Shown here: piece by piece, positions 17,101-54,767 of the stretch
Layout of the letters: each line of letters begins with the position of its first letter
Numbering within the stretch: the first letter of the stretch is position 1
Assembly (NCBI GenBank): GCA_048213135.1
Contig: PS015055.1
Coordinates: forward strand, 26,823-81,589
Length of the DNA stretch: 54,767 nt
Direction of reading: 5' to 3'
DNA from: Reclinomonas americana ATCC 50394
Taxonomy: Eukaryota
Made by a program: the position numbers and the translations under genes
Notes under the pieces: model-generated
What the model was told of the DNA's origin: nothing
Seen by the model: the letters and a program-made list of their open reading frames with translations, nothing else
The model's database searches: none

Positions 17101-20100
17101 TCGGAGCTCGCACCGCGGAACTGCCACAGTCGCATTCAGCGCAATGTTGAAGAATTTGTTCTCGTTCATGAACACTTGCAGCAAGCCTTTGTGCACTGCC
17201 TGTTGCAACCCAGAACACCTGAACCCAACCGCAACGTCAGTCGTAGTTCGTGGCCTCAACACGAGCTGTTCATCGCCTGGAAGGAAAAACGCGCCGACAC
17301 TGCCAGTCCCATCAACACCGCGTGCGCCGAGTCGAAGCTTGATCAACACAGGAACGTCAGTGGTGTTGGCCACCTTCACTGCCCGTCGAACCTCCGCACC
17401 GGTCACAGAAGCGTGTCCAAAGTCCAACTCTTGTGTGTCAAACAGCAATTGCAACGATTGCACGTTCGCCTTCACCACAATGGAGATGGTGGACAGGCGG
17501 CCGTCACTCTCGAGCACAAGGTCATACGCGGTTGAATGCAGACCAGGAACGGGAGCCACAGATTCGACGACAAGGTCAGTGTGACTGCTCGGTCCAAGAT
17601 AGCCAGCTGCTGGTCCCACAGCGATGGGAGAATCACCAACGTCCACGTCGCCTTCGCCGTCGCGGCGTCTGACCACAGAGTATCGGATACCCGCGCGGAC
17701 GGAGGCGTTCTCGACCTTGATTACACGACGTGAAATTGCCGGCTGTTCGCACAAGCGCGTATCCAAGTCAATCATCAAATTGTTTCGGCTGCACACGAGT
17801 TCGCCTCGATCCGAGATGTCGATTTGCAGAGACTCGGCGGAGTGCATAGCAGCAACGAACTGGTCCATCAATACTTCGTCGGGGGGAAGAACACCAGACG
17901 CCAGCGCCATTGTCTCAAATGCTGAACTGGCATGTTTTCCACCATCTAGTTGCTGCGTGACACCGTCCAGAAGCTTGTCTGATTCCGCAACAATGCTGCT
18001 CGCTCGTGATTGCTCGAGGAGAAGGGCGCGCGATTGATTATTCACAGCTGACCGCTGGAATACAGTGGTGCGAGCAAAAAGGAGCTTGGGAGTCTCTGTA
18101 GTAGACCGCGAATCTGGACGCCAAGAGTTCACAGTCGCCAGATCCATGTCAGACCGTACCTCAACGCATGCACGACGGTACAACAGCGCCAACAGCAGAT
18201 CCAAGTCGACATAGAGTCGCAGTAGTCGCGGAGCAAGGGTCAGCAGCACTTCGGAGGTGCAGTGTACAGCTTGTTTCATGTCCGCCGTACCCAATTGCGA
18301 AACTCTGAGACTCTTGTTGTAGTCGGTGACACGCTCAAATAGTTGTAACTGTCCTCCAACAGTTACCATACTGCGATACTGGTCGGCAAGCATGCCAACT
18401 CTGGTGAGTAGCTGCTCGGCCAGAGCTGGCCACTCGCGCAGCGTGCGTTCAATTAGTTCAGCACTGCGACCGTTGAGGCCATCAGACAAACCCTGATACA
18501 CAGTGTTGAACAGGTTAACAGCTTCGGCAGTGGTCGAGCGACAATCGCGCATCCACTGATGCAGCGGCCAGTTGCCGTACTCTTTCCTGTCCTCTTCCCG
18601 TGCTCTGGCCGAAGACGTTTCGGGGTCTTCGCGAGTTTCCTCACGGGGCCGATCAAGTTGTGGTCGCGGACCAAGGTCCTTAGTCAAGGTAACAAGCTCT
18701 TTCACCGCCTCCTTCACCGTCTGCACTGTTGCGTGGATTGTACTGATATCGAAAGCCATGCTTTCGTCCTCAGCGGCTGGAGATGGCGTCTGGCGAACTG
18801 CAGCAAGCACCGTCATCCATACAGCCGCTATTGGGAAATCGTCACAGTCATCGCCGCGAGGTAACGGAATTTCCATGCGACGATTGGCATAGCGCGGATC
18901 TCGCTGCTTCCAGTGCCGTACAAAATCGGTCAGTGGATGCGACAGAACCACACTTCGAGTGCCAACAGTAAACGTGAACTGCACGGATGCCGTACGGAAG
19001 TCGCCAACTTGAGGACGCACAAGCTTGTAATTGTTGGCATTCCCACCAATGATTCGCCACCCCTTGTCACGCGCACTCCATTCAATGACCAACTCGGGTC
19101 CCACTCTCACAACCTCAGCATCAGATGAGCCGGGTTTCACAGAGATTTGGAGATAAACCGTAGACGAAGTGTGTGCAGGCGCATATGCCGCGCTCGCACG
19201 AAAAGACAACTGGCTCAGTAAGACGGACTCCACAAACTCGAAATTCAACTGCACAGTCTCCGCTGGTCCCATCCACCGTGCAATTTTCTCGTCGCACGAT
19301 TTCACGTACGTGTCAAGCTCGACAGCAAATTTTTCGAGCACACGGTTGTCTCGCTGAGGCTGCAGAAGCCAGTGTACGATGCTGGAGCCTGCTGTTGACA
19401 GCAGCAGCACCCGCTGGCGGATGGCGTGGCAGCGCTCGTCATACCGTTGAGTTTTTTGCCGGTATTCTGCTTCAGCCTCCTCCGCTTTACGTCTGAACAA
19501 GTTCATAAAGTCGTCCCACCGCTTCTTCAACCAACTCCGTGCAGCTTCAAAGCGCTTGTCCAACACGATCTCTACACCATCGGACCACGATCGCCAGGCT
19601 GCGTCAACAGAGTCAACACACTGCCGTATTTCAGATCGATCCGAGAGCAGCGCAAGAGACTCGGTCGACAATGTGCGCAGCATATCTGTCAAGAATGAGT
19701 GCTGCGTCGCCGTCACACGGTGGCGGAAACCGTCAATGTCGCGAAGCAGTTGCGAGACCCGTCCAAGATCAGCAGTGAATTCTCTTTCGGCCTCTACAGC
19801 TGACAGCAACATGAGCTCCCGCCCACGTTCGACCAAACGGCCGAGGTCATCCAAGAGTGCAGCTGCTTGCGGATTGGCAACACTGTGCGGTACAAGAACC
19901 TGCGTGTATCCTGCCACAGCTCGTCCAACATGACCACATGCGTCTGCCACAGCCAGTGCCACAGTGCTTGGAGTAGCAATTGCAGATCGCAGTTCGTCGG
20001 TGGTCAACACGGAATAATCTGGAACCTCATCGGCGAGGCCACCGCTGATGTGCATCACAAACTCACGTCGATCTTCCAACTCATACAACTTGATCACATC

Positions 20101-23100
20101 TGTGCGCACCGTGCGCGCTGCAGCATCTACCGTGTCACGAACTCTGGTCCGAGGCATCAGCTTGGTGTATACAGCGAACTCGACGCTGTAAAAGTTGGCC
20201 ACCGCTGAAACGAAGTCACAGAAGAACTCCCTGCACGCGAGCTGCAGAACCGTCACTGCTTCGGTTGAGTTTCGTCGCAGACGCTGTACTTCTGCCACAA
20301 GTGACAACATTTGCTGCATAAGCCCGTCAAGGCGACCGTCTCGAGCGAAAACACATAGCGCATCTCGCACAAAGTACCGCAGTCGTTCAGAAATGACACC
20401 AGTGTGATATGACGCCACAATCTCAGAAGACGGAAGCGCTGTCCGACGTATCAAGCCACTGAATCCCTCGAGAACAGGAAGAAGAGCCCTTTTCTCGTCC
20501 ACCGTTGCGTCATGTTGTTGACAGACAGAACGCGCAACTGATGACAGGCTGAGAGCCAACACACTCGCAGAATACGCGGGCTGCAGGAACAAGCTCTCCA
20601 AGGTGTGCGCACCGAGTCTTGCGTCAAGAAGAAGCACAGATGGCGACTGATGACACTGGAACAACCAGAAGTAAACACTGCGCTGCAGCGTTGTACCCAA
20701 GCCGTCAATTGTTATGCGCGATTGCTCCAGCTCGTGAACAAGTTTCGGCGCCTCCATGCCAAACACATTGGTCATGGAAAACGGTGATTCAGACGCAATG
20801 TCGAGTGCGGCACACTGTGACTTCAAGCTTGCGGTAAACGCAGACAACTCTGGAAGTGGCGAGCGGCACCATTGCTGCAGCAGCCGTGACATCACCAGAG
20901 ACAGTCGACGGACACAAAGTCGGAGCATTTGCACTGTGCTGCTGAGGAACGGCAAGTCGTTTGCAGTGGGACTGTCGACAACATGTTGCAACGCCACACA
21001 CCGCGCCCACTGCTGCATAGCCTCCTCTGCAGACAGCACAGGTGTAGCGTCACTGTCAGTCAGCGACTGCCCGATCTGTCGAACCAAAAGGCGAATGCTG
21101 GAACCCATGTCTCGCAAAGCAGGGGCGCGCTCCACAGCCAGATCACAATCTTCCTTTTGCGCAATAAGCCTGCGCACACAGTGCAACAGAGCGCTAAATG
21201 TCTCTTCCAGTGCGGAACGGCCAAGCTCAACACAAGCCAAAAGTCTGCGCACTCCGATTGCGATACCGTCTACATCCTGCAACAGGACCGCGAGAATCTG
21301 CGACACATCTCGTGCGGCGTCAGCAAATGCCGTGGACTGGAAAGCGGCAATTGTCTTGCCAAGCACATTCGCGCTACGTTGCAAGTCGTCCACAGACGGC
21401 CCCAGTCGACACGAAACACACCCAATCACTCTCTCAGCAGCAACTGCCGGCAACAAACGAACAGTTTGCATCTCACTGCGCTCAACGTCATCATCTTCGG
21501 CGACACACGATCCAGCGTACAGGTTGTCCTCCATCGGGCTGACAGCAAGGGCCATAAGTCGATCCATGCACTGAGCCAATTTGGAGCACATGTCCTGCTG
21601 CTGCTCAAGGCGTGCCTGAGCAAGCTCACCGCGTACACCGTCAATTTGAGCCTCAAAGTTCGCCTTGCTGACCAACGCTCGCTTTCTCTCTTCACGAGCG
21701 GGGCCGAGGTAGAGGCGCTGATACTCTTGAATCTGCGAAGACAGAGCCTCGAGCTGTTGAACAGCGCGTTCACTCCGCCCTCGCGTTACAGCGCCTGTTT
21801 CCGTCTCGAGTCGAAGGCGTTCAAATGCCTCGTTATCCATCTGTACGTGGCGTTCATAACGCGCAACCTCGGCATCGTGACGTCGAACAATGTGCTCACA
21901 GGCAGTCAACTGACTCTCCAAGTCAGCCAACCGTTGCATCAGTCTCTCCACGCGCTGCGTCGGGGCGAGCGATGCTTTGCTGAAGGCCAGCAGATCGTGA
22001 TTGCGAAGAGCACCTCGCATGCGCTCCCACATCATGCGAGCCGCATGGACCAGCATGTGCGAGGAGAAGACACTCAACGGCAAAAGATCCGACACATGTG
22101 CACTTGGCGTGAGTAGCAATGCAGCAGATTCTCGATCAGCAGCAACATTGCGTACTCGATCAACAAATTCCGTACTCTGTCCCACAAGCTCATTGCTGAC
22201 ATCGCGAAGCACACTGCGCCAACCGCCGTCATTATGGTCAAAGATGCCTACTCGACGGCTGCTGGTACCGACATTTGGCACACCGACACACAAGCTGGAG
22301 AACAGCGCACCCAGTGAACCCGGTGGCAGACGATCAGATGTTGCGTCGAGAGCAGTCGCCGCAGCACTTGCCGTCACCATCGATGAGTTGGTGAACAAGT
22401 CAACTAACAGACACTCTTGGTGATGTAGTTGCATCAATGTTACCGTGTCTTCCGGTATCAGCAGCATCGCTACATCGCGCCAGTGCAGCACCGACGGGAC
22501 AAGCAACGATTCGTCAGTTTTGTTGAGGATCTGTCCAGATGTGAACACACTCTGGCGACGTCTGCAAACATCGTAAAGATGGACGAGTCGCGGAAGCGGC
22601 AAGGCAGCATAGCCGGCCGGCAGTTCGTCATCGTCACCATTGGAAACACCAAGTTGATCCACCACAGCAGACATGTCGCCAGTAACGGAGCGCAATGACA
22701 GGTGTGACAACAATGGGATTGTAGAACGACTGGGAGACACAAGGGAGTCGACCAGAGGGCGGTGGAATGTTTGTAGCAACTCCAGCAGGCAGTTCAGCAG
22801 ATGGCCGTCAGTGACAGGTGAGTCAAGTGCGCGCGTAAAGCGCTGCGACACATCCAGAGAGTGCCGAGATGTCACCATCGCACGTAGGTGCCTCGCGTCT
22901 TCAGCAATAATCGACTGCCCTCTCGCAACAGTGAACGCAGCCATCCACAATTGCTGAATGTACGACTCAGACTCAGCTTGTTGCATCCACAGAGCAACAG
23001 CATCGCTTGACGGGATCTTGATGTTGACAGTTGTCTCGAGATGTTCAACGTAGTGGAGGAGCACCTCACGGTCCGCCCTTGTAGCGTTGCTGTCACCAAA

Positions 23101-26100
23101 GTCTCGAGAGATAGCGATGGCCCAGCCGTCGGGTGGAGATGGCGCAGGAATGCGGTCACGGAGATGGCCCCGACGAATCGCATCACGAACCAGAGCCGAC
23201 CGCGCAGCAGTGAGAAGTCTCACATCTTCGTCCAGACGCATCTGGATCTTGTTGATTAACAGTGCCAGGTAACTCAAATCCACCTCCAACAACGAGTCGT
23301 CAGCCTTGAGTCGCGCATACAGTGATGCGATCTGCTCAGAAATGGACGGATTCGGAAGCGGTGAGGTGGCGACTCTCTGCTGGAGTCGCTCAAGACGTTG
23401 AAGAAACTCGAACTTTTGTTGCTCCAGTCTCTCCTTCCGCTTCGAGTGCTCGCCAGAGCCGCTGCCGACCATTGATTCTCCATGCGCCAGGAGATCTGCA
23501 GCAACGCCGGTGCCGGCCACAGAACCAACAGAGTGCGAAGGTCTGGAACTGGCAGCGGTTCGTGAAGTGCCGTTATCAGCTGAGCCACCAGCTGCCCGCG
23601 CACGCATTCGATCGTCGTGATAACAATGCTCAAACTGTGCACGCAGCCGATCGCAGAGACGCTCTGGAATCAGCGTCTCGAGAGGCACTCGTCGGCCCAA
23701 CTGTTCCAGCTGGTCACCGTCCAAATGCTCACTGACAAAAGAGCGCACAGTCTCAAACTCAGCCTTGGCACGGGCATTCAAGTCGTCCAGCTTGAGAATG
23801 TCGAGCACAGCAATACCAGACTCCTGGTCGTGGCGAACAAGGTCCAATGTCTTGCGGACGCACAAAAACCACGCGTCAACAGCACAGCTCACATCGTGAA
23901 CCACCCGAGACAAGTCATACACGGCTGCACTGCGAACTGTCAAGCTCGTCACTTGCGCCATGACGTCATGCAGATCGCCAAGTCGCTCCACTGCACACAG
24001 CGCGCCATGCGCTCGAATCACAACTGAATCCTCCTCCAACTCCGTCAGAACTGGTTGCAACAATGGAGCCGTAGAAACAAGCCTTCGTGCTGATCGCAAC
24101 AGTGACACTTTGGCCACCACCGGGATCGATAACAACTTGGCCTTGTATGCACTGAGCTCGTCCTCTATCTGGCGACGTCGCTGGCTTGATAGGGCTTTCA
24201 CAGTCGACGAGTTCAGCAGCACACGACACATCTCAATGCGTTCAGGAGCGGCAATTCGCGAATTCTGCTGCCAAGTGAGAACATCAACCGCCTCACGCGC
24301 AAACTGCGTGGCGTCCTCCACTACGGAGTCCGCATATTGATGCGCACCATCAGCAACCGTTGGCGACCACACACGCACGTCACTAAGAACCGTCGACAAA
24401 CTGTGGCACGCGTCGACGTAGATCTGGAGCATCGCCGCCGCTGACTCGCCGTCAACAACAACAAAACTCTCGGAGCTCTCGACCCACGAATCGGCGCACG
24501 TCTTAGCAAGTGCTACCAGTAACAGAAGCTGTCCTGGCACGGATGCCTCAACGTTACCGTCACTACACTGCACATCAACTACGTTGATGTTTGGCGCTGA
24601 CTGCACACCAGTTGGAGAGGGCACGTCACCATCTTGTGCGTCGACACCGGCACCGCCACGAAGAGTAGTCACAACCGAGTTGATGCAGGCGTCTGCAAAC
24701 CGTGTTGTGCGATTGTAGTCTTCGGTGTGGCGGAATTTCGAGTCGAGGCGAAGATGCCGCACAACAGATACAGTAAGTTGCTCACCACGACCTCCCACTG
24801 AGAGTCCGTCAGCGTCCACAAAGTCGTAAACAAGCACCGACATGGACGAATCGGGGGCACCTGACTGGGCAGTCACTTGTGCGACTCGTGGAAGCACCAA
24901 GAACTGAACAAGGCGTGATCCTGGCACACAAATCTCAGCCTTCGTGGCCGCCGATGCCAACAGCACATTTCTGTCCGAGGACACGGCGCATTGGAGAATC
25001 TCTACGACTACGCGACCGTTGTCAGCGGCAGCTGCTCGTTGTACACGGTGAGTGGGTGACTGCATACGCGTCGCAGCAGTGTTGCCCACCGCAGCGTGCA
25101 ATAAATTCACCGACTGCAACAGCCTACGGTCACAACAATGCAAGATCACCCACGGAGCATGGACAGCTGGAGTCACCCCAGTAAGCTCGTCCCTGCTCGA
25201 AAGCGCTAAACGCAAGTGGCGCAGCAGTGCGGTTCCCTGACAGGCAGTGATAATCAACTCCTGCAGACTGCAAGTGTAACCGAATGCAGCTCGGGAGGCA
25301 CCCAGTGAGGCGCAAATCTCCACTGCTGCCGCGCCCTGCTGCTGCACCACCGTCACCGCAGTGGACGACGCTGAAGCCGAACTACGTTTCTGCTCGAGAA
25401 CGTGAACAAGTTTCCTTCTGCTCTCCTCCGCAGCGCGGATTGAGTCCTGAGTCTGGCGTAACAACCGCTCACGGTCACTAGCCGTCTTCTGACTACGCCT
25501 CTCCGCCTCCAGCATGTTGCTGAGAGACACTTCGTAGTGCCGGAAATCCTGCAAACACTTTTCCAGTCGGCGAAGGGAATCCACCAAATCCGCAGCGACC
25601 CTCAGGACTGCAACAGCCTCTTGCTTCTGCTGCAAATCGCGCAAGACCACAGGCTTCAACAGTTCGCTGATGTGCCCCACGTGGCTTCCGTCAACAAAAG
25701 ATGTTGGCAGCGAAGCCCACATTGCCAGACGAGCGCTGCCAAGATCGGCAAAGGCCGAGAGAGTCGCAACCGACGGAACAACAGAGTCCTTGAGCTCTTC
25801 CACCAGGCGCACAAGCACGTTCCGACGGAGTACAGCACCGGCAGGTGTGCCTGATTCTCTTGCTGGTAAGCGTAATACCTTTTGCAGCATTGCTCCAACA
25901 AAGGCATGCGTCGTCGCAGTGGAACTCTTGTTGTGCACACCACCAGTGAGCTCATGCATCACATCCCCTGTGGACGAAACAAGCGTGGCGTCACACAGCG
26001 GGTCCAGGAGCTTGAGAAGGCGACGGAGCGCATGAAGCTCCTGTAGCGAGGTGGCCACCGCGGTCATGATACCGGGGTAGACTGCAGTCCCTCGCCGCTG

Positions 26101-29100
26101 CCAGACACTGTCACACACAAAGCCCACAAGCACGTCGCTGACAGCGAAGAGCCGTTGAAGAGACTGCCGCCGTTCAAGAGCATCACTGATCGACGCATAC
26201 AAGACGCAAGATACTGCAGAATCTGCGATACTACGCGACGCTGAGCACAAGCGAGTAACCGAAGTCATCAGCTGCTCATCGGAGCCGGGTCGCAGTTGCG
26301 GCACCTGCAGGATAATCGTCCTCAAGAGTGTTGTAACCGTGCGTAGCGAACGATGAGCAACGGATGACCCAGCGGCCCTGGCAAGCGCGTCCAAATCACG
26401 ATGCATTTGATCAACGGCAGTCAAAGTCGGTACTGTAGAGTCGGCACCTGCTGCCATCGACAAGAACAGAGTGCGCACACCAGGGACCACCAACTGCTCC
26501 AAACATCTGTGCACAAACGCCGCCACCTCGAGCACCACATCCTCCCTCTCTGTCGCATCTGCGCTTTCGCACAGATTGACAACTGCATTCGACAAGATGC
26601 GCAGCATCAGAGACTCCACCACAGCCAGCTCCGTTGTCATCGAGTCATGCTCAGCCTCCCACATGTCTTGGTGTTGCACAGTCGGCAATCCACGTTGATC
26701 CCAAGCACTGCTCGTGACAATGGCAGGCATCAAAATAAGCGGATTCGTGAACACTGTCTGCAAGTGCCGAAGAAGAAGCTGTCTCGCGTCAGAATGACCA
26801 ACTGGCAGTGGAGCCACATAAACACGAAGCAGGGCATAGGCCAAAGCGGAAGCGGGAGACACAGTTGCGCCTTCCTCTCGCTGCCCGCGAAGTATCCAGT
26901 TCACCATGCGGCACACTTGCAACAGGCTGCGAAACGTCACTGGAAACTCAGTTTGCCCCGCCGCCGAAGCAATGCGCTCTTTTCGACAGCGGACAGCAAA
27001 TGCGTGGAATGCCAGCGCGGCGACCACCAGCCGGCGACTCTCAGATCCAAGAACAGTGCCCAATACTCGCTCAAGTACACCACCAAGTTCCATCACTGCA
27101 CGTCCCATCGGCTCCGGCATTTGAGTCACCTCGGCCGGCAGCAGGACGTCAATTGGCGTTTGCACGAGAGACAAATCCACAGGCGCAACATTCAACCGAA
27201 TTACACGATTCATGAAAGCCGGTGACAGTTTGAAACCGTGCAGAAGGTTGATATTTGCCGAGAAGAAAATACGGAAGTGCGGGTCAATGCCACTCCCACG
27301 TGTGAGCTCCTCGCCGTCTTTCTCCATCACATTCAGGAACGGATTGTCCTCCAACAACGAGTTCAGTCGCTCAATGACTTCCGGCGGCGCACAGTTCACA
27401 TTGTCCAACAGCACCCAGTCACCATTGCGCACAGCTGTCAACAGCACTCCTTCAACGAAGGCAAACCGCATGCCGGAAGACGCAGACTCGGCAAGCTTCC
27501 TCTCCAAGTCACTACTCATGGCCCGCAGCCGTGTGAGCGACATCGCGAGAATCTGCTGGCAGGGAAGCTTGGCCAGCTCACCCTTGCACAGTTCCATCAC
27601 AGCAGTCACACTGGCGGCAGCTTGCTGCAACCCAACCTGGAAGGCGCGCGCGAGACGACTCAGACGATCGGCAGACGAAAGGTGGCCACTGTCATCACTC
27701 TGTCGTTCGTCGTCAGCAAGTTGCCCGCGTGACAAATTCTGCATACAGCGCTGCACCACCACCACGTTCGCCAGTTCGTCAAGAAGTGCCACTGCAGAGC
27801 CACTCACTGCAGTTGTCGCATTCACTCCGGGCTGCAACAGCGCAGGAACCAAGTGTGCCAAAATGCTCTCGCAGGCGACCGTAAGCAAATCAGCGGCTTG
27901 CAGACAATGACGGGACACCGACTTGATACTCTCGGGTTGTTGCGGTGCCCACTGTCCGAGCAGATCTGACACTTCCGTATCATGATGCATGGACACAACA
28001 TGTAGGTGCCGCCGGCAGAGCCGGGCGAGCTCCGTGACCAGGCCAGTCTTCAGCGAACAAGTATCTCCGACGTACAGAACTGGCTTTGCCGCACGAACAG
28101 CAGCAGCAAGACAGCGTAGCTGTGAAACCGTTGACGGAGTATGAACCAGGGTCGCACTGTGATCCTCAGCAAGTCGTCGACTACGGTCGAGTTGCATGAC
28201 TGGGCCTCGCTCGAGATACACCGTGTCGATGCGAACAAAGTCATCGAGTATGTCAATACTTGGTTGCCCGTGAATTTGCAACACAGAATCAGCGACTGCA
28301 AGATGCTTCTTCAGCAAACTGCGAACACGGTCTTGGTCGGCCACATCAGACAGTCGCCGGGCAAACACAATGTCCAGGAGACTCAACAGCACAGCAAGAC
28401 GAGCGTCGGAATCTTCAGTATGCGTAGATGCTGCAGGCAAAGAAGGCGAAGCAGCAGCACCAGCCGCTGCACTTGGAGTTCCCACCGTCACAAAGTCGGC
28501 CGCAGACATGGCATCGGTGGCTGCTTGAGCATTCATAGCCAGATGCGCTCGCATAGCTGGGGCATTGCCGTACACCAACGCCACAAAGTTTTCGATGTCA
28601 CGCAAATTGAAGCTAACATGCTCGTCAGAGCGTGCAATCTCTCGCAGCTTGATGAGCCTGTTGACTTCTCGCATCACTTCCAACACACGGGCCAACTGCA
28701 GTTCCGACAGAACACCTTGGTGGTCCGCACCGTCCAGCAGCCCAGCAGTGCGCGCCATCTGAAACGCCACCAGAAGCAGTTCGCGCTCATCATACTCGTC
28801 GAGAGTCACCCGTGAGAAATACGCCAACACGGAGCGTGGCAACTTGCTGCGGCCACCGCCGATTGACTCTGGATTCATCGTGGCAAACACGCGAACCGAC
28901 TCGCCAATGGGCAGCCGCTCCTGCGTGGCGCGGCAAACGAAGAACCTTGGCGTCGACGCACGACTACCAGCAAGAATAGACAAGAGAGGCGAGAGCTCCT
29001 CCAACACCTCAGCCGGCGCGAGATTGAGTTCGTCGAGGAGCAGCCAAGAGCCGGCACGAATACCAGCCAGCACGCGACCGTCACGCCACGAGAACTCTCG

Positions 29101-32100
29101 TCGTCCGTCCACCACGCGAGGAATGTACGATCCAAACAGATCATCAACGGTGGTGTTCGCGGAGCAGTTGACGCGTACCACCTTGTTGCCAGTCAGAGAA
29201 CCCGCCTGGTGTACAATCATGGTCTTGCCGACGCCAGGTGGACCTTCAAGCATCAGTGGGTAGCCAACCGCAATGGAAGCCACGACGCGACCAAGGTTGC
29301 AGGTGACCGTAGGCGTGAGCTTCATCGCTCGCGGTTGATCAAAGTGGGACTCAAGTTCGTCAACAGTGCAAACCTGACGGGAGGGTGCCAGTGGAACAGC
29401 CAAGCGCAGGTACTCAAGCTGCAACTCAACTCCGTGAGTAGCAGACATGCGTGCCGTAAGTGGCTTCACCATGACCTCCTTCGACGGCATCACCTCGTCA
29501 ATCCAGAGTGGATCGGCATCAGCAGAATGCGTCACCAGGTTGCGCCACAGTGCCAGTTGTTTCGGCACTCCAGGAACTCGGTCAACAAACGTAAACTTGG
29601 CCGCGATCAGGAATGCTCGACGAACTGCACCGGGAGCTGCTCCGTCAGCAAGGTGCAGACCAAGTTGGAGCCAGCGCAACCAGTCTCGAATTGTACGCTC
29701 GACGCCAGGTACCTCGGCAAGTACACTGTCAACAACGTGCATGGTATCACGGACAAGGCTCCACTCAATGTGTGCCCTTCCAGCGAGGAAAATCTCAAAG
29801 TACCACAGTAAGACCTCCTCGCGCTCATCCGTTCGATAGCCAGGAACCCAAACCTCGGTAAACCGTGACCGTAACGCAGGGCTGAGAGCGATCTTGTCCG
29901 TCTCAGTGTCGAGGTGCACAGTGGCGAATATCATGAATCGCGGTAAGAGCTCAATTGTAGCTGACTCGCGTGGACACGTAATATCCTCCATCAAGCTGAA
30001 GCTTCGGCTGGTCTCCAGTAAACTGTTCAGACGCTCACTCACAGATTGGGGCGGCAGATCGATGTCCTCTAGCAGCACCGGACGAGAGTCCACTGCTGCA
30101 GTAGTGACCGGCCCATCCTTGAACACGAACACTGGTTGATGAAGATCACAGACAGCCAGATCACCCAGCAGGTGCTTGCACTTTGCCAACAGTCGCCGTA
30201 AGCTGTTGTCAGCAGGCAACATCTCCAAACATTCGTCCAAGTTGGCAACGAAATCGTCAATAAGATGCAGCACTTGTCGCTCTGAATCGCTCGGCGGGCC
30301 AAGCAACCCCTCCTTGTACCGACTGCCTCCAAAACACCGCTGCAGCGCCATGTCGCGATAGAGAGCAGAGGCCTTCTGCTGAAGTTGCGCTTCGACTTGC
30401 GTGCGCAAGTCGCTGAAGCGGGTGCTGCCGCTAATCGTGTCAATGCCGTCAACACTGTCGTCTCCGGAGTTTGCCAGCGACGAAGATGGACGAGGAGCTC
30501 CTCGTGACAGTGGCATCTGGAAGGCAGCATCGTGCTCGGCACCAACCGCATCGGCGGCTGCGAAGCCGGCCAATTCGGCGCCACCGCGCACGTCACCAAA
30601 CTCGTCATCCTCCGCGACAGCAAAGGTGAAACCAAACGCAGATCCGTCCCCACCGTCGTCAGCAAAATCGAAATCTCCAAAGGCAGAATCCGGCAGCACG
30701 TCATCGTCCGCAGCCCAGCCACTGAGACCACTGTGCACATTGAGCACAGGCACCGAATCATCCGCTACGGCCGTCGACAAGAAGGGCGCTGCGGCCGGTC
30801 GAAAATCGTCGTCCGAATCAGGACTTGTGGCACGACGTCGTTGATGCAGGAGTCCATCGTACTCATCATCGCTCTCTCCGTCAACGATACCAGTTACGTT
30901 CTGGCCGCGAACAGAACCGGCTGCATCATGTCGAGGTTGGCTGTGATCACTGTTCACTTGCGATCGTCGAACATCGAAATCGGCCAGAGGGTCACTACCG
31001 GCGGAATCGGCAGCAGCTGATGAAGCGACGGCAGCGAAGAGGTCCATCGCTCGTGCTGCACCCTGAGCAGCGTGCATCATGTCCTCGTCTGATGGCAACA
31101 GCAGGCTGTGGGCGAGTCGGTCCAAGACGGAATCGTCGGCAAACAGAGAGTCATGCTGACGCTGTCGAGAAGTGCCTTCGCCAGCAGCCGCGTCTGACAC
31201 GTGCGCGCTGTCCACATCGTCGCCGGCGACGAATGAACCATTGATATCCTCGACGCCATCAATCTCGGCCTCAGTCATTTCATCGCGACGTGACAAGAAA
31301 ACCTCCAACGCTTCTACAATCTGCTGCAGCAATTCGCAGCACCCGTGAATACGATCCTGCAGCGCACGGCGTTGCTGGCTCTCGATGACATTAAGGCCAA
31401 CCAAGCTTGCCGACTTGCGAACGTACTCGGCACGATCCAAAAACTGCCGCCACTGGTTCAGCAGTTGTCGTACAGCAGAAGCGTAAACCACTGGGAAAAT
31501 GTGGCCCACGAGATCCCCAACTTCGGCATCTCGAGTGCAATAGACCGTAAGCAAGTCGCTGTCTCCGTCATCATTGCCTTGCTTACCAGCCGGCGTTGTA
31601 ATGGTGGCGTACGTGCTTGCAGCCAGACTCTTCAGCCCCGTGGGGCCAACCAAGAGAACTGGTTCACCGGCCTGTGCCGCAAGGCTAACGAGGAACAGTG
31701 CTCGGCGGAAACTGGCCGGTGGTTGGCGATCGCCACGGAACAGTATGCTGCGGTCGAGCCTGCCCGGCAAAGCCAGGAGCTTGTTGTCAGCCAACCAGAA
31801 CTCAATCAAGTCGTCGGCTTGCTGAATGCGGACAGAGCAGTCGGGAGCGGCAAACAATTCCTCCGACGCGACACGGATTGGACTGGTACCGGCAGCTGCT
31901 GCAGCACGCTCAAATAGTTGCCGGAGTTGAATTATACGACCGTCACCGGCAAAGTCGCGTCCAACCACTGCAGCCGCTTTGGCCACCGGCCACCGAATGC
32001 TCGAACCCAAAGCCAATGCAGGGCCACACCACCAGTCATGTACGTTGACCGAAGCGTGGAGGGCATGACGAGTGACCCATTTCTCCAAGTCACGCATGGT

Positions 32101-35100
32101 GAGCTCGTCAGCATCGGCTCCAAACACACCAGCCTGCTGGTCTACGTTGCGACCGGCAATCACGAGACGGAATGCATCGGCAACTTGCAGCGACCTGAGT
32201 GGCACGGCGAATCGCTTCTGCGCGATGTACTGCATCTCAGCGTCGGTAAACTTGTGTACTTGGCATTCCAGGAATCTACGCAAATACTCGTCACATTGAG
32301 CACAAGACGAAAAGAAGCAAAGTAACTCAGAAAAGGATGAGAAAAAAGAACAAACCGACTTCTCAAAGCCGGTGGTATCTTGTGCCGACCAGCGAAGCGA
32401 GGATCGTCAGCATCATTCTGGGTGGCAAACAGCCGAAATCCGGGTACAGCTCGAATTGTTCGGTCGGTACCGGGAACGGTGATGCTCCGACGGCCCTCCA
32501 ACAGCGGCGTCAGCATGTTGAGGACTGGTATACTGGCCAAGTTGAACTCATCAGCCACAAACCAGCAGCCACGCTCCATGGCCATTGTCAGTGGGCCAGG
32601 AAGGAAACGAAACGCTGGACTGTGACCTCGGTGGCTGTTTGCCTCAACAGCCTCCGCCGAGTCACTCTCTGGATCTGCGGCGCTGCCAGGCACATACGTT
32701 CCGAGATAATCTTGCACCGTCGTGCCGTCACTGTTGTTCACACGGAAGAGCTGCTGCCGCGACCCATCAGGACGGGTAGAATAACTGGACAAAAATGAGA
32801 TGCAAGCTGTTTTGCCAGTTGCGGGCGGACCCTCCAGTAACACTGGGTATTGTAGTAGTGCACAAAGCGCAACACTGTTGACAAACTTGAAGCGTTCCGA
32901 CAGATGCTCTCGATCCACAACGTAATGATCGTGACTGCTGTCGCGTCCACTCGCAGACACCAGTTGCTGCACAAAGTCAGCCATCGGTGCATCGATGGCA
33001 CTGGCCCACGCCTGCGGCCAGTTGCCCATTGCACTTGAAAACGCCATCTCGACCTGAGTACGTTTATCTGACTTGCACAACACAATGACGGCGGCCTTTG
33101 CTGCTTGTTGCAAGGCAAGCAACCACGTCATGTCTCGCTGCAGGTGCAACTGATACGCACAGTCAACGAGTCGTACAAAGCCACGCAGACCGAGGTGTCG
33201 ACTGTCGGGAATGATACGACGTGCTTCGGCAAACGCGCCAATGAGGCGACCGACAGTTCCGGAGTCACAGGACAATGGCGACGGTGACGATCCCGGAGCC
33301 ACACCAAGGCAGCTGCATCCAATACGATACACTTCGTCGTCCAATTGCCCTGCTCCGAGATTCACGTCGTCGAGTTGGATAATCGTAAACCGATTATACA
33401 GTGCCGGCGACAAATGCTGGTCTGACTGTGCGATTGCAGAAGCGGGGGGGTCTCAGTCAAGTGTCTCAAAGATTGAGGAGAGCACAGCGCGCAAACTTAC
33501 CGAGGGCGGAGTCGTCATAGTCGCAAAGAACCGAAAGCCACGATGAATCGTGCGCGCGGATTTCTCGTTGTTCTCCGTCACATGCCACACTGATGGCAGC
33601 TCAAGAAGCGGATTCAAGCGTTCCAATACAACGCTTGGCGCATCATTGAGGTTGTCCAGCAGAATCTGCACGTGCAATACAAAACGAGAGAGCATGTGTG
33701 AGAGAACGAGGTGAAATGTTGCGCTGCAAGCTATACGCACCCAGCCTCCCTTGCTGACAGCTGTACTGACAACGCCGTCGATCCATTGTACTGACTTGCG
33801 AACGGGAATGACTTGCCCCACGAGATCGCTCGGTTCGCTGTCTTCTGTCATGCACAGTTGCAGGCAGCTGGCGTTGCAGAGGTTGGCCAACATACGGATC
33901 AGCTCGCTCTTGCCAACTGAATCGTCGCCGATCACGAGCACGGGCTGGCCCAGAGACACCGCTCGTGCGAGAAGATACCACGCGCGGATGATGCGAGGCG
34001 AGATAATGTACGGCCGTAACGTCGATGCCGCCGCGGAATGTGAAGCACGCATTGCCTCGGCAACCAGCTGTGCGCTCACAGTGCCCATGCTTTGCAGCCG
34101 TGACAGCAATTCGCCGCGAGCTGGTTCCCGTACAGCGACTACAAACTCCAGCATGTAATGGCGCAATGCCAACTGCTCCTCGCCCCTGGCACTGGCGATA
34201 ATTCCGTGCACATCGACATCCGAGATAGTGTACAGCCCCCACGAACGCACGAACTCTGGCGACTGAACGATCCCAAGCACCTGCTGGTGTAGACGCCATA
34301 CAGCCGCCGCAGCGCCAATGGCGACCTCGGCAGACAGAGAGTTAGGTGCAAACGCACGGCGACTGAGCCGAACTTGTGTCCCGTCACCGGAGCCCAGCAC
34401 TACTGCATCCTCCGCAAGATGAATCGCTTGCAGGGCGTCAGCAGCCGTTGGTGCAACCAACACCGCAGGCATGGAACCACGAAAATGTTCTTCGACAAGC
34501 CGCTGCACCGCAGCCTGCGCCGAGCGACGATCAGCACTGGGAGCAGCGTTGCGGAAGCGCGAACCGTAAACCGCCCAGGCCTCTGCAGCGAGGCACGAGT
34601 CCACAAGCTCCAATTTTGAAGACAGGAGCCGAGGATTCATCGCCTGGGAAAACCCGTCGACGAGGCGCAACAAATCCCGCACGGTGACCTCAGCATAGTT
34701 TACGCCGCGCTCTGCAAAGTCGGCATGCACCACAAGCTCCTCAATGGCCATGTGGAAGTCGACGACACGACGGGTAATGCCATTGACAGTGTCAATCGGC
34801 AGCACAACCTCGCGCCAGGACGGGGCTCGACGGAATCGATCACTGACAATCTCCAGCCACTCGTCGCGCGGTAAACGGAGAAACATCTCAGTCTGGAACC
34901 GAGACAAAAACGTCGGCGGCAGCTCAGTGCGCTTGTTCTTGTACGCTCCAGTCGCTGGATTCTGCGTGGCAAATAAACGGAAGTTTGCGTGTCGAAGCAC
35001 AGCCCGATCCGCAGCACCGCTACCAGCTCTCGACATCGCCGATGGTTCGACGTCATCGACAGAGCCGGTGGAGGCATATGTACCGTCAGTGAGGAGCAGG

Positions 35101-37912
35101 CGGCCCGTGTCGAGCGCACACTCTAGAGCGCCGAGCACCTCGCTGCTGGCCAGATTCATTTCGTCAAGCAGCAGCCAGTGGCCATGTCGGAAGGCAAACG
35201 TGAATGGCCCATCTTGGTACTCGAAGCGCTGAGTACCGTCATCATCAGTTGTCAAGGCCACTCGTCCAAACAAGTCCGAAATGGTGACCTTGCCCGACAG
35301 GTTGAAGCGCACAAGCGTCTTGTTGGACACTACGGCGGCAGCGGTTACAAGAGCCGACTTGCCGACACCAGTCTCTCCCTGCAACAGCACCGGCTGGTTG
35401 GTGTCGGCGGCTGCGAGAAGCTTCATAATGTTGACCGTAGTGGTGGCCGTCGGCACGATGCGGCAGGCACCACTAGCCAGAGCCTCATGGAGGCGGCGGC
35501 CAGCGGCGTCTGCCTCAGATTGCGGTTGCAGACTCCGCACAACACTCGAGTCGTCAGCGATCCGGCCACCGATGAGCACTGCAACGCGTTGAAAGTCCGC
35601 AGCCACGTCAACCGCGGCAGCAGACGCCGAATCACTCGCCAACACGCCGTCACGTGACAACCCGTCAGTTGAGGCGCGTAAGTGTTCAGCAAGCGCGTCA
35701 AACACGTGATGCTGGACCGAGGCGGTGGGGTGTTCCATCGTCGCATTAGCTGCAACACCGCCCGCGCCGTCAGCCGCGACAGGCCTGTGGCGTACACTGC
35801 CTCCAACACTGCCCGATTCGACAAGAGTTGCAAGAGATACACCAAACAGCATCTCCACCAGTGAGCAACAAGTCTGACGAACCACGGCATCAGTAGACTG
35901 CAAGCGCTTGATGAGCGACGGCGCCACGGGTTGCACAATACGCCGAATAATCGTAGACATGCCACTTGGGGCGATCAGCGTCCGCAAATTGTGGCCACAC
36001 ATGGTCACAAGTGAGGAATGCAACGGCTTCAATTCATCATTGCTTGCATCTCGGTCAGGAATGTCTTCCAGCAACCAGCGAACCGTATTCAACACAAGCT
36101 GCGAACTGTGAGACGAATCGCACGACGCGTCGACGCGACTGAGTGCAGTAAACACCTGGACAAACAAGTCCGAGTCTGCAAGTAGCGGCCCGCTAAACTC
36201 GGCACACACGGCTAGAATCTCCGGTGACGTGGCCAGTTCCTCAGCACGACGTGGAAAATCAGAAGCTCCAACAGGCGAAACAAAGTGATTGCGGACAAGC
36301 GACAACAGCAATGCTGACAAGAACGTCATCGTCGTGAACGCCGGGATCTTGCCGTTGAGAATACCGTCAAACAGACTGGCAACTGCTGCGCTCGAACCGG
36401 AAGACTCCGAGTCACGACAAGACACCAGTGCAGCTTGGGCGAGCTCAGCAACGTCGCCGACAAGCGGTCGTAGCGACGACGGATTGTCGGTGTACAGTGC
36501 CCGTAAAGCCTGCAGTGACAAGTGGACAGCAGGAGCATCGGCCCAGTCGGCCGGACTGCGACTTGTTTGCATTGCCTCAAGAGCCAGTGACATGGCCATT
36601 TGACACGGCTGTGCAGTTGAAGAAGCGGTGTTTGCAGCCAGCAAAACACTCTCATGCCAGCGCTCCGCGGCTACCGGTATACCAGCCACGCGATGCAGCA
36701 CGTCCCGCAAGTGCCATACGGGGCGGCCGGCAAGCAGGCGCTGGCGCAGCGCTTGAAGAAATCGAGTGACCCAGCACGGATGCGACGGACCAGCAGAGCG
36801 GACAGCTTGCTGCGACAAACGGCCCACAATTCGCACCAACTGCAGGCACTGGCTGTCACCGTCTTCCATGAGCAGGCTATCATCATCAAGAAGCCGCAAC
36901 GTCACTTCTGGGGTGAGAGCGTGCTCAAAAAACGATCGCAGCTTGTACTCCTCAAAACGACCCAGCAGACGATCCGCGACTTGAAGCAACGTAAGTCGAC
37001 TGGCGATTGAGACACACGATGGAGGAGAAGCGTAGAACACTACAGAACCCAGCAGAGAGCAGACCACCGGCGGATCCGAGTGTTCGGCGAGCTGCTCGAA
37101 GTCATCAAGCAGTGACAGAAATACTGCAGACCGACGCTCAACGGCAACCTCAGGAGGCGGGAAGACACGGTTCACAAGTGATGCCCAGTCAAAGCGGGAA
37201 ACAAAGGCCGTTGCTCGTCGAGACGACAGTAGTAATAGCAGTACTCGCAGCACGAAACGGAGAGGGCCGTCAACGTCACCGGCAACAGGGCGTGCACACG
37301 CGACAATCGCTTCCTCGAGACGCAGAATGGCCCCGTCAGCACCAGCATCTGCGGCAGCCAAGACGTCGGCAGCGACGCCGACCACGTTCACAGTAGCTCC
37401 CTCGTCAGCGTTGGCACAGTCAGTCACGAACCCGCGCAGTTGGTGGAACAATTCGATGTACTGGGTGTGGGGACGCGTGGGTAAAGCGCCCTCCAGCCCG
37501 CGATCCTGAAACCAACGCACTTTTGAGTGAGCACGATGCAACAACACACAAGATACTGCAATCACGCCACTTACATCGATGAGTCCGTCGCTCCACGTGA
37601 TACGGTCGCCATTTCTGGAGGCCACAGGAGGATTCAGCACGAGTCGAGCGCAGTACGACATCAACTCCACGTGGCGTGCCAGGCAGGAACGGAGGCGCTG
37701 ACTGAAATCAGCAGCGCCTTGGACGCCAACAAAAAGATCCAGGCACAGCATCGCCTGTTCCAAGTCCGTCACCGTGGTCGCCTTGCAAATCATGCTGGCC
37801 AGCACCGACGGCAGCATCGCCACGGACTCGGCTGACACGGAAGCTCGCTTCACTTCGAGGCACTCAGTGAGACGCTCGCAGAGTGGAGTGCCGTCCGCGA
37901 GCAGTTGACCGC
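1329..37912 (-). CDS. MDN1-like: Giant midasin/Rea1-like AAA+ ATPase (6 AAA modules, long linker, 3 VWA domains), at least 11,960 aa in this span
   Basis: Ten exons, all GT-AG and phase-compatible: 37912-33741, 33665-33501, 33425-32356, 32275-4149, 4081-3982, 3898-2956, 2880-2695, 2609-2106, 2017-1670, 1601-1329 (35,888 nt). There are six MoxR/dynein-related AAA modules with midasin-style motifs (e.g. PLMLEGPPGVGKT...WLLLDELNLA...FATMNP; WVLLDNVNCAPPEVIERLNSLLE). A midasin-type pre-MIDAS segment is present (DFTGSSLHMPSLI...RRNYRIAIVLDKSSSM). Confidence 0.93.
2360..3150 (-). other. VWA/MIDAS domain 2, midasin C-terminal type
   Basis: RRRPDFTGSSLHMPSLIRAV...YRIAIVLDKSSSM...FNLFVFG...QTCDADAV...FMFVFTDG, which resembles the conserved midasin G.RLNM..VI...YQI..AIDDSSSM segment. 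Confidence 0.88.
3650..4385 (-). other. VWA/MIDAS domain 1 of the giant protein
   Basis: YEFVFMVDSSWSM (DxSxS)...FAVVRFG...RGTHP (T)...VMMITDG (D), assembled across the introns 4082-4148 and 3899-3981. Confidence 0.88.
16020..17795 (-). other. About five tandem Ig-like (ASH/PapD/Hydin-like) domains within the linker
   Basis: A repeating ~110-aa beta-rich unit has an (L/I)DFG/NLG start and a conserved Asn strand: IKVENAS, ELDFG...VKVANTTDVPV, LVLRNTGIIPF, VTLMNRGSMPT, INLGD...VMLCNRGNALL. Each unit later shows a G.L.P-type turn. Confidence 0.75.
26800..35460 (-). other. Six-module AAA+ ring (D1-D6) of the giant protein
   Basis: Walker A/B pairs: D1 GETGVGKS/LLLDE (~35370/35165), D2 GDDSVGKS/ILLDN (~33920/33655), D3 GPPATGKT/FVADE (~32820/32550), D4 GPTGLKS/VLLED (~31635/30070), D5 GPPGVGKT/LLLDE (~29235/29035), D6 GDTCSLKT/VLLDN (~28055/27405). 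Each is followed by an F.AT/FSAN sensor-1 strand, and most by an (S/T)xRD/RS-like sensor-2. Confidence 0.92.
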
Positions 37913-38722
37913 CTGCGTGAATGACGGAGAAAGGATTAGAGGAAGGGGAGGAGAAAGAACAGAGAGAGAGTGAGAGAGAGGGGGGGAGGGCGTGAGGAGG
38001 AAAGACATATAATCCTTGTGCAAGTGCTTCTGCAAGTGATACCTAACATGTGATTGAGCGATAGTTAGAAGAACATGAAATGCAGCAAAGAAAAATGTCA
38101 CCACGAACGTCAAAATAAAAGGATTTGTTCGACGACGATTGCAGAAAGGGGAGGAAAAGAAAGGGAATCAGGTAAAAAGCGGAGAAGAGGGGGAGGCAAA
38201 GACAACAACTGACCAAGATGAATGTGCTACCACATCGGGAGTTAGAGACTTTCGCGTGATAGAAAGAAAGAGACACACAGAGTGGCGACAACAGGAAGAG
38301 AGATAAGGGGGAGAAGAGGAGGAAGGAAGAGAGGTAGAGAAACAGACAGGCAGGCAGAAGAGAGACAGTGAAATAAGAATCAAGGCGATATATGATATGC
38401 TGACACACACGCACGCGCGCACACATACAAAGAGAGAGAGATAGCGAGATAGAAAAGATAACTGGAAAAAATGAACATAAATGCAACGCACATAAGAGAT
38501 ATTACTGAGAGGAATGCCGACAATCGCAGCAAGTGGTACGGGAAAGAGAGAGATAGTTCAAGAGAGGAAGGGGGGGAAAGAGAGGGGAGACTGTATGTGT
38601 GTGACAGAAAGAGAAGAGAGACAGAGACAGAGACAGAGCCAGAGAGAGAGAGAGATGTGAGACAGAGACACGGAGAGAGAGAGAGATGCGAAAGAGATAG
38701 AGAGAGAGAGAGAGAACATAAC

Positions 38723-39771
<1,049 letters not shown>

Positions 39772-40940
39772 TTCGTTTCACCGACCAAAGCACGAAGGTG
39801 TGTGCGTTCAGAGTCTGCGCAGTCGGGGGCGGAGAGAGAGAAAGAGAGTGAGTGAGAGTGAGAGGGGGGCAAAGTGAGCAGAAAACGCGACATGGCGGAT
39901 GCTGTCAGAGACAGAACACTCACTGCACCAGCGGTGCACGGAGGCAGCATGGGAACGAAGAGAGCGCGACATATGAAGAGAATCGAAGTGCAGGACCGTA
40001 TACTCACCGGCGCTGCGATCAATGTATTGGGAATATGGGTATTGCGGCGCAAGCAGGCAGTTGTGCGGTACACAGTCACGCACTGCTTGGCAGACGGTAG
40101 AATCAGATTCACGCCCACAGTGTGCACGGGGTGTGCGCGCAGTTGGAGGTGAAATCGATTCCGGCTGGCTTGCATTTCATGTCCCGTCATCCACTTCATG
40201 GAACGCGGCAACAAGACACTGTGCATGATATCGAACCAGGGTCGAGGCGCCAGCTGCCAACTCGTTTGCGAATGTTGACATGCGAGATGGATGTGTCATT
40301 GTGTCGTGAAGCACTTGTTCTGCAGGCGCGCAGCGTCGGCCTTGGAGGAGCAATGGTCGTGATTCGATTCGCATCGATCTGCGTTCGGACAAACCATGGC
40401 CGTCTGCAACAAACAGCGGAAAGCAAACTGCTGGAGGAACAGCCTGTGTTGCTCGTGTGATGCGGTCAGCTGGCGCAATTCGCAAATCCGAAACAGCGCA
40501 CATGCACGTGGCAAACAATTGCAAGCCGGCGCGGGATCGCGGCGCTTGTGTTCGAATTCGAATTCCGGCAAAAGCGCGATTTGTCACGGGCACTCCTGTC
40601 GGCGCCGACCAACGCGCGTGTGCATTCCTCGGGGTGGTAACACCGATCGGGGGCTCGAGCTCACTCAAGCTCGAGATGATGCAGTCGTCAGTCTCCAACA
40701 TTTTCTGTACAACAAACATTTGAATTCTAAGTCATGCGCACACGCATGCCGTACTTGTGGGTCTATGTCATATCGTCAGTCGTCAAGCTCGCTCTTGTCG
40801 TAGATGCAGCCGTACGCGTGCATGCGACATAACAACTCAAAATCGGTGTGCCAATGCTCGCGTTCTCCCGCCACAATGACAAACCCCTCATTACTCTTTG
40901 CACCAAGCACTCACACTCACACACACACACACACACTCAC

Positions 40941-41929: not shown

Positions 41930-41978
<49 letters not shown>

Positions 41979-54389: not shown

Positions 54390-54559
54390 CTCTCACACAC
54401 TCGATCACCCAGAGCATACAACAACAACATTACACGCTCTCTCACACACTCAGCAGTGATCAATCATTCATTCACTCTCAGTCATGTACTCTGCCAGCAA
54501 GCTGCCACACAACCCATCTCACACACAATCACCCAGAGCATACAGCAACAGCACGCGCT

Positions 54560-54767
54560 CTCTCTCTCTCTCACTCACTCACTGTACTCATTCTTACTCT
54601 CTCACTCACTCACTCACTCACTTACTCACTCACTCACTCACTCACTCACTCACTCTCTCACTCATTCTCTCACTCACCCACTCCCTCACTCCCCTCTCTC
54701 TCGCTCCTCTCGCGCTCTCACTCACTCACTCACTCACTCACACACACACTCACTCTGTCTCTCACAC
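54560..54767. repeat. (CTCA)n / CT-rich microsatellite
   Basis: Long degenerate ctca tetranucleotide run reaching the window end. Confidence 0.9.

Follow-up and report, generated by a model that had tools for sequence, protein, structure and literature searches.

A midasin-like AAA+ ring with alternating intact and degenerate ATPase site motifs, encoded by Reclinomonas americana

Midasin (Rea1/Mdn1/MDN1) and dynein are the two textbook single-chain motors with six AAA modules in one ring, and how the unequal sites of such a ring share the work is an open mechanistic question for both. Here, we report the analysis of a six-module ring encoded by Reclinomonas americana ATCC 50394 (GenBank assembly GCA_048213135.1, contig PS015055.1, forward-strand positions 26,823 to 81,589). 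This stretch of 54,767 nucleotides is called the window, and all positions are counted from its first letter. We hold, with a probability of about 0.75, that the ring belongs to a single-chain, midasin-like AAA+ protein of ~12,000 residues from an old, apparently undescribed paralog family, and that it is built of three alternating catalytic pairs.

The dynein heavy chain is a single-chain six-AAA ring that mixes hydrolysing, binding-only and empty sites, as the present ring appears to do; its dead sites are clustered (AAA5 and AAA6), not alternating. In F1-ATPase (alpha3beta3) and in Pex1/Pex6, non-hydrolysing subunits supply the Arg that completes each of the three hydrolysing sites next to them, and some of these non-hydrolysing subunits bind nucleotide. 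For midasin, two papers were used, here and below, in the form of excerpts. In Mdn1, each site joins the Walker A and Walker B motifs of module n to the Arg finger of module n+1; AAA2 to AAA5 are conserved and required, AAA1 and AAA6 have a Walker A but no Walker B motif, and within the finger motif it is the second Arg that is critical (Kawashima et al., PMC5116814). The same finger rule is given for Rea1, where helix H4 of AAA5 provides the finger of the AAA4 site and the H2-alpha insert of AAA2 is auto-inhibitory, its deletion raising ATPase activity 10- to 15-fold (Sosnowski et al., PMC6286127). An earlier, sequence-only reading of the window had cited both the rule that finger n+1 serves site n and the completeness of AAA2 to AAA5 in Rea1/Mdn1, and both agree with these excerpts.

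Motifs of the six modules and their conservation

Six tandem AAA_5 modules (D1 to D6) lie on the minus strand at 27202-35378, a span that the sequence-only reading had set at 27190..35400; all features of the gene given below are on this strand. Pfam placed AAA_5 on all three open reading frame pieces (E 8.2e-32 for the D1 piece), together with AAA_lid_7 and a weak C-terminal VWA. Exactly six Walker A and six Walker B-to-finger blocks could be aligned to each other.

D1, D3 and D5 have intact sites. D1 (35378-34896), at the AAA1 position, carries GETGVGKS (35378-35355), LLLDE (35177-35154), the sensor-1 motif FATQN and the finger LSRF (34910-34896). D3 (32831-32266) carries GPPATGKT (32831-32808), FVADE (32564-32541), FATQN and the finger RSRF, which is read across an 80-nucleotide intron (32366-32266). 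D5 (29244-28816) carries GPPGVGKT (29244-29221), LLLDE (29046-29023) and FATMN, with Tyr at the finger position (LAYF, 28830-28816).

D2, D4 and D6 are degenerate. D2 (33929-33387) keeps a fully canonical P-loop (GDDSVGKS, 33929-33906) and the finger YNRF (33401-33387), its losses being confined to the Walker B Glu, which leaves DN (ILLDN, 33743-33645 including a 75-nucleotide intron), and to the sensor-1 Asn (FATMTT). D4 (31647-29854) has a P-loop of seven residues, GPTGLKS (31647-31627), with LLED (30078-30058), FATVHL and the finger RSRF (29874-29854). D6 (28068-27202) has GDTCSLKT (28068-28045), LLDN (27417-27394) and the finger MNRV (27216-27202), and retains the P-loop Lys and the sensor-1 Asn (SANI).

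The alternation had been proposed in the sequence-only reading, and every motif listed there was found in its place on the minus strand. Its second observation was confirmed by motif alignment: an Arg finger is kept in D1 to D4 and D6 and is missing in D5 only. The finger column tracked here is the second Arg of the motif. The sensor-1 column, which the earlier reading had not used, alternates too (Asn in D1, D3 and D5, Thr in D2, His in D4), with the Asn of D6 as the exception.

The stretch from Walker A to Walker B is short in D2 (62 residues, without a long insert), whereas in D4 it holds a low-complexity, partly acidic insert of 521 residues (~31626-30079) and in D6 an insert of 216 residues that is predicted to be all-helical. 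An ALLDE within the D6 insert was considered as a Walker B motif and rejected because it sits in a predicted helix, with no strand. The Arg of FSRV, two residues on, was likewise rejected as a displaced D5 finger, since it is unconserved in the protein family described next.

Homologs keep the pattern in 35/35 complete members, 25 of them with <70% mutual identity (10 of the 35 are >70% identical to another). They come from a pool of 336 proteins that was sorted by Walker A-Walker B spacing alone, with the motifs not used: D2 spacing of <110 residues together with D4 spacing of >250 residues placed a protein in the family, and D2 spacing of at least 110 residues placed it among canonical midasins. 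This gave 35 family members, 257 canonical sequences and 44 proteins left out as incomplete or irregular. By eye, 23 of these 44 are family fragments, and the modules present in them agree with the pattern.

Among the 35 members, from D1 to D6, Walker A is canonical in 35, 35, 35, 0, 35 and 12; Walker B has DE in 34, 0, 34, 0, 34 and 0; sensor-1 has Asn in 35, 1, 35, 2, 34 and 27; and the finger has Arg in 33, 35, 33, 35, 0 and 35. The D4 Walker B motif is ED in 29/35 and the D4 sensor-1 residue is His in 31/35, and the D4 P-loop has the seven-residue form G-x4-K-[ST] in 25/25 non-redundant members. D6 has DN at Walker B in 30/35 and always keeps the P-loop Lys. The D5 finger position is occupied by Leu (22 members), His (3), Met (3) and others. 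Mean pairwise identity among the 25 non-redundant members is 0.47, 0.42, 0.50, 0.44, 0.47 and 0.50 for D1 to D6; being as conserved as the intact modules, the degenerate modules are maintained and not decaying.

Fingers feeding intact sites (those of D2, D4 and D6) are invariant, with Arg in 35/35 each. Of the fingers pointing into dead sites, that of D5, which faces the most damaged site (D4), is always lost, and those of D1 (into D6) and D3 (into D2) are lost occasionally. The D3 finger is missing in P0093 and P0096 and the D1 finger in P0105 and P0109; all of these exceptional losses point into dead sites as well. The 257 canonical sequences, checked as bona fide midasins, do not have this pattern. 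From AAA1 to AAA6, their Walker B motif has DE in 0, 256, 257, 257, 257 and 0, and their finger has Arg in 53, 237, 256, 257, 257 and 254. They present a mirror case, in which the AAA1 finger, directed into dead AAA6, is Arg in just 53/257 and mostly Leu or His; the Mdn1 fingers listed in the excerpt of PMC5116814 are R2 to R6 only.

Judged from these alignments, such a pattern goes far beyond what chance would give. That two independent sets of columns, the site motifs and the trans fingers, fit each other is the strongest argument for a functional assignment of intact and dead sites.

A clade beside the canonical midasins

The closest solved proteins are Schizosaccharomyces pombe Mdn1 (6or5, E 6.9e-118) and Rea1 (E ~5e-105). 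A first homolog search covered proteins of 5,185-16,499 residues (498 candidates scored, 87 passed) and gave seven matches at 504-644 bits (P0003-P0009), then a gap, then annotated midasins at <=404 bits. Block profile hidden Markov models built from the six modules of the window, iterated once over 88 proteins, recovered 527 Walker A and 522 Walker B blocks. The alternating pattern is common to the window and the seven top matches and was found in 0/80 of the others; those of the 80 with six recognisable modules have the published midasin pattern. A protein tree (concatenated blocks, FastTree, LG+gamma) was made from the 73/88 proteins with six clean modules, and in it the window and the seven form one clade with support 1.0, the stem of which measures 0.88 substitutions per site.

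Two proteins labelled Mesvir1, which we take to be Mesostigma viride, are divided between the clades, with P0003 (the top match) in the new clade and P0017 among the green-lineage midasins. In precomputed domain lists, P0017 carries PF17865 (AAA_lid_5) and PF21108, as do the canonical matches, and P0003-P0009 carry neither. The genus Ectocarpus is likewise in both clades, P0021 being its canonical copy. The sequence-only reading had framed the ring as that of a midasin with a changed firing pattern. Since the clade is separate and one genome set (Mesvir1) holds both copies, this framing gives way to a separate old paralog family with a conserved pattern of its own.

A second search, of named proteins of 1,728-5,501 residues, found members in two Ectocarpus species, Adineta and Rotaria species, Brachionus, Tetradesmus, Hondaea and Hydractinia. 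Labelled members from the first search are Prymnesium and Mesvir1, and every labelled member scanned shows the pattern. Most matches of a search for shorter homologs were fragments of canonical midasins. When a tree of the family was built with eight canonical outgroups, the window grouped with P0093 and P0096 (0.88) and then with P0104, P0106 and P0112 (0.95). Members are labelled in databases as "Midasin," "MoxR-like ATPase," "Dynein heavy chain" or "uncharacterized." A wide, profile-free scan of 1.84 billion protein representatives, with 26806-30204 (the C-terminal part of D4 through D6) as the query, gave 5,162 matches at E <=0.001; the best 150 of these are all paralog-type or canonical-midasin-type, with no bacterial protein closer than these two types among them.

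As both clades contain animals, green algae and stramenopiles, the sequences suggest that the duplication is probably older than the divergence of these groups; transfer from lineage to lineage may be an alternative account of the spread. Open-access papers and preprints were searched for a second midasin-type family and for its site pattern, and neither was found described there or in the midasin passages of two evolution papers (PMC3495828 and PMC5100056). The family seems undescribed to date.

The register of the modules was examined in a tree of 132 single modules from 8 family and 14 canonical proteins, in which each of the twelve module groups is monophyletic. AAA3 is the sister group of D3 (support 0.95), AAA5 is that of D1 and D5 together (0.86), and odd and even types stay apart, save for the poorly placed D6. 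A shifted register, with D1 equal to AAA2 after an unrecognised module, was rejected because there are six Walker A/B blocks only, D3 pairs with AAA3, and D5-D6 pair with AAA5-AAA6.

An AlphaFold2 model was made for D5-D6 only (27073-29370, 766 residues, 16-sequence alignment). With a predicted local distance difference test (pLDDT) score of 75.4 and a predicted template modelling (TM) score of 0.67, it shows every motif in its expected structural element; in D5, Walker A is flanked by strand 39-42 and helix 49-60, and Walker B is part of strand 109-113. The best Foldseek matches of the model are Rea1/Mdn1 rings (6hyp, E 2e-20, TM score 0.53). VIA-align against 6hyp gave Z 22.4 and a root-mean-square deviation of 6.1 Å over 537 aligned residues (24% identity), matching Rea1 1720-2289 (AAA5-AAA6). 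With this match and the sister groupings of D3 and of D1 and D5, the register of the sequence-only reading stands.

The ring and midasin have in common a single chain, six AAA_5 modules in the same order with odd and even types in alternation, a long linker and a C-terminal VWA/MIDAS region, as well as AAA_lid_7 in the window. The best sequence and structure matches are 6or5, 6hyp and 5jcs, D6 resembles AAA6 in its DN and helical insert, and both rings have lost one Arg finger, one that feeds a dead site. They differ in which sites are intact, D1, D3 and D5 here but AAA2 to AAA5 in midasin. Compared by position, the dead AAA1 has an intact counterpart in D1, and the essential AAA2 and AAA4 have dead counterparts in D2 and D4. 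It is the D5 finger that is lost here and the AAA1 finger in midasin. D2 spacing is 54-94 residues in the family, whereas in canonical AAA2 it is at least 110 (mostly 144-261). The D4 insert, 277-521 residues long in the family, is the most acidic part of the protein, and PF17865 and PF21108 were not found in the window (Pfam, E <=0.01). The family has three VWA pieces where midasin has one MIDAS domain, is about twice the length of midasin and forms the separate clade described above.

The acidic tract of midasin also has no counterpart in its usual place: a D/E-rich tract before the VWA is absent in the five family members examined. The maximum D+E content per 200 residues is 0.19 in the window and 0.20-0.295 in four relatives, located in the D4 insert, and it reaches 0.36-0.415 near the C terminus in three canonical midasins.

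The sequence match to dynein is far weaker (E ~1e-7 versus 1e-118), and the present protein, unlike dynein, has a VWA. None of the dynein stalk, microtubule-binding domain or tail families was found in the Pfam scan, which gave only weak AAA_6, AAA_7 and Dynein_heavy P-loop matches, and the window sequence has no long coiled coil at the D4-D5 junction. CobS, CbbQ and NorQ are also among the solved-structure relatives of the ring. The MoxR-class hexamers (NorQ-NorD, CbbQ-CbbO and CobS) share the AAA_5-type module and the VWA/MIDAS pairing (NorQ, Z 20.6 over one module), but they are homo-hexamers of ~270 residues in which the six sites are equal and the VWA is on another protein, whereas here six diverged modules and the VWA domains are joined in one chain.

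Gene model, linker and surroundings

The host gene is eukaryotic and intron-bearing and runs on the minus strand from ~38042 to ~1329 (~36.7 kb, roughly 12,000 residues). The open reading frame list holds three stop-free frames, at 38042-33456, 33452-32163 and 32406-4123; the last has 9,428 codons and an exon portion of 32275-4123. Intron 1 (33740-33666; 75 nucleotides, GTGCGT...CAG, in frame) lies within D2 between GGW and ILLDN, and its excision restores the family consensus G-x-W-x-x-LDN. Intron 2 (33500-33426; 75 nucleotides, GTAAGT...CAG) takes out an in-frame stop at 33453-33455, and an alternative acceptor is possible 9 nucleotides downstream. Intron 3 (32355-32276; 80 nucleotides, GTTTGT...TAG) changes the frame and joins ALRSR to FLECQVHKF, and is supported by the fit of the spliced reading to the family pattern LRxRF[VL]E[VI]. 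The motif readings are unaffected by the introns, since the whole of ILLDN follows intron 1 and the D3 finger is RSRF with or without splicing.

The spliced model 38042..4123 has 11,230 codons and is stop-free. Further downstream, the C termini of P0006, P0008 and P0009 align at 4377-1676 (tblastn), and an open frame stops at ~1329, ending in YLDRLS before the stop codon, much as family members end in LDHL or MDYL. The span and length given for the gene follow from these alignments to 1676 and from this open frame. The 5' limit (38042) is the edge of an open frame; the start codon and any further 5' exons are provisional.

The linker has ~7,600 residues and is poorly conserved, and no Pfam family was found at E <=0.01 on its part at 13549-22977 or on the exon at 2677-3999. 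Within it, ~five tandem beta-rich repeats (17715-15616) form a putative Ig-like array of the ASH/HYDIN/CFAP65 type. Pfam matches there are below threshold (Cep192_D3, E 0.002; HYDIN_VesB_CFA65-like_Ig, E 0.042). Ten of the ten best named language-model clusters carry HYDIN/CFAP65/ASH families (0.92-0.94), at a recognition value below the mark. We regard this candidate array as a lead. The family fragment P0088 has PF22544 in its precomputed list.

The C-terminal region (4377-1676) contains three VWA-type pieces with MIDAS-like DxSxS or DxTxS starts, whose exon joins are provisional. The first (~4377-4246) reads FMVDSSWS, with its DSSWS at ~4368, and matches Pfam VWA at E 1.9e-4 (22.2 bits; cut-off, 23.8), the second (~3000) reads VLDKSSS, and the third (~2100) reads VMDCT and GSM across an intron and resembles Pfam VWA_4. 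When the C-terminal exons were taken separately, Pfam gave VWA at E 2.8e-5 (24.8 bits, above the cut-off) and VWA_4 at E 0.011.

A neighbouring gene on the plus strand (49463-51244) encodes ~12 tandem 40-residue BNR/Asp-box repeats of the sortilin/Vps10 type (Pfam E 4.3e-22), with Cys-rich, EGF-like repeats of 31 residues upstream (48994-49217). AT-rich blocks of 34-36% G+C (40000-44000 and 52000-54767) flank genes of 55-60% G+C, and at 40.8-43.3 kb there are long stop-free frames in all six frames. Simple repeats include (AC)49 at 39184-39281 and (CTCA)n at 54558-55. Positions 1-800, downstream of the stop codon of the ring gene, hold CT/GA-rich low-complexity repeats with open frames on both strands.

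Three catalytic pairs, rival readings and significance

By their motifs, D1, D3 and D5 would be equipped to bind and hydrolyse ATP. D2, which keeps the P-loop and the Walker B Asp and has lost the Glu and the sensor-1 Asn, probably binds nucleotide without hydrolysing it. D4, with its P-loop shortened by the Gly before the Lys, is probably empty, and D6 would be akin to the non-hydrolysing AAA6 of midasin. By the rule that finger n+1 serves site n, the working sites would lie at the D1/D2, D3/D4 and D5/D6 interfaces, each completed by the finger of a degenerate module. The ring would then act as three catalytic pairs, by a logic like that of F1-ATPase alpha3beta3 but within one chain; the sequence-only reading had proposed a trimer-of-dimers firing pattern. 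The likeness to F1-ATPase and Pex1/Pex6 is a functional analogy only, as these are made of separate subunits with unrelated or distant folds, and no sequence relationship is claimed. The ring presumably pulls, via its very long linker, on partners held by the three VWA/MIDAS-type domains. The motifs, their conservation, the split between the family and canonical midasins and the register are observed; the assignment of binding and hydrolysis to individual sites, the coupling between sites and the nature of the cargo are points that we infer.

The protein could instead be a fast-evolving MDN1/Rea1 whose sites were reshuffled within a lineage and which still serves 60S maturation. Midasins are its best solved relatives (6or5 and Rea1), the layout of six AAA_5 modules, long linker and VWA is theirs, and some databases label members "Midasin." This reading is nevertheless very improbable, given a separate clade with support of 1.0 and a long stem, both copies in the Mesvir1 set, Ectocarpus in both clades and the lack in the family of PF17865, PF21108, the AAA2 insert and the D/E tract; moreover, a pattern common to animals, green algae, stramenopiles and haptophytes is not lineage-specific. 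Extreme gene size and a poorly conserved linker might also suggest a decaying gene, a pseudogene or an error of assembly or annotation. A stop-free frame of 9,428 codons, ring modules 42-50% identical among members that are themselves <70% identical, and the precise retention of the motifs of degenerate modules make such an artefact scarcely credible.

Two further alternatives concern how the sites are used. One intact site may be the main motor, with the other intact sites and the nucleotide-binding D2 and D6 regulating it. Unequal sites are the rule in single-chain rings, and in dynein one site drives and the others regulate. The three pairs are also not alike, D2 having no insert, D4 one of 277-521 residues and D6 a helical one of 122-241 residues (in measurable members). 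For Mdn1, one site has been proposed to give half of the activity (PMC5116814). We think this dynein-like division of labour unlikely, though deserving of real weight, because the intact sites and their trans fingers are equally invariant (34-35/35), which suggests that each is needed. The other alternative, that the alternation is only apparent and the degenerate sites still hydrolyse ATP by non-canonical residues, could draw on the P-loop Lys and Walker B Asp kept in D2 and D6, on the fingers that reach them from D3 and D1 (Arg in 33/35 each) and on the nucleotide held by AAA1 and AAA6 of Rea1 (PMC6286127). It is improbable: D2 has no catalytic Glu (0/35) and has the sensor-1 Asn in 1/35, and D4 has lost the P-loop Gly (canonical in 0/35) as well as its Glu and Asn, while the D5 finger that would serve it is gone in 35/35. 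Replacement of the Glu by Asn, moreover, resembles the hydrolysis-dead E-to-Q change long established for AAA+ proteins.

Several observations count against the three-pair paralog reading or narrow it. Intact motifs are no proof that all three sites fire, or fire equivalently, and they may contribute unequally, as in dynein. P0114 has no DE in any of its six modules; this protein may work without hydrolysis, or its gene model may be bad. In the module tree, D2 groups with D4, and AAA2 with AAA4, within each family, and the one-to-one orthology of D2, D4 and D6 with AAA2, AAA4 and AAA6 is assigned by position, not by the tree. In VIA-align, dynein ties with Rea1 on Z (7mi3, Z 23.4, 446 aligned, 15% identity). 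The three introns of the ring region, which have the short spliceosomal form, are predicted from GT..AG boundaries and homology as the sole basis. Finally, a canonical MDN1 is assumed to be present in R. americana as well.

As a doubtful extension of the paralog reading, we offer that two midasin-type motors existed before the eukaryotic supergroups, the second being an obligate alternating ring with an Ig array and three MIDAS domains, associated with the cilium or centrosome, non-ribosomal and often lost. To our knowledge, all named holders of the family are ciliated or flagellated at some stage.

The family offers a natural experiment, in which the ring and module order of midasin are combined with strictly alternating intact and dead sites, and the conservation of its trans arginines matches exactly the prediction that finger n+1 serves site n. 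It would provide a simpler, three-site system for studying coupling between sites. Proteins named "Midasin" in rotifers, a cnidarian, brown and green algae and haptophytes are partly a different, unstudied protein, and this mislabelling bears on annotation and on what is inferred about ribosome biogenesis in these organisms. If the duplication is as old as its taxon spread suggests, the early eukaryote would have had one more large motor.

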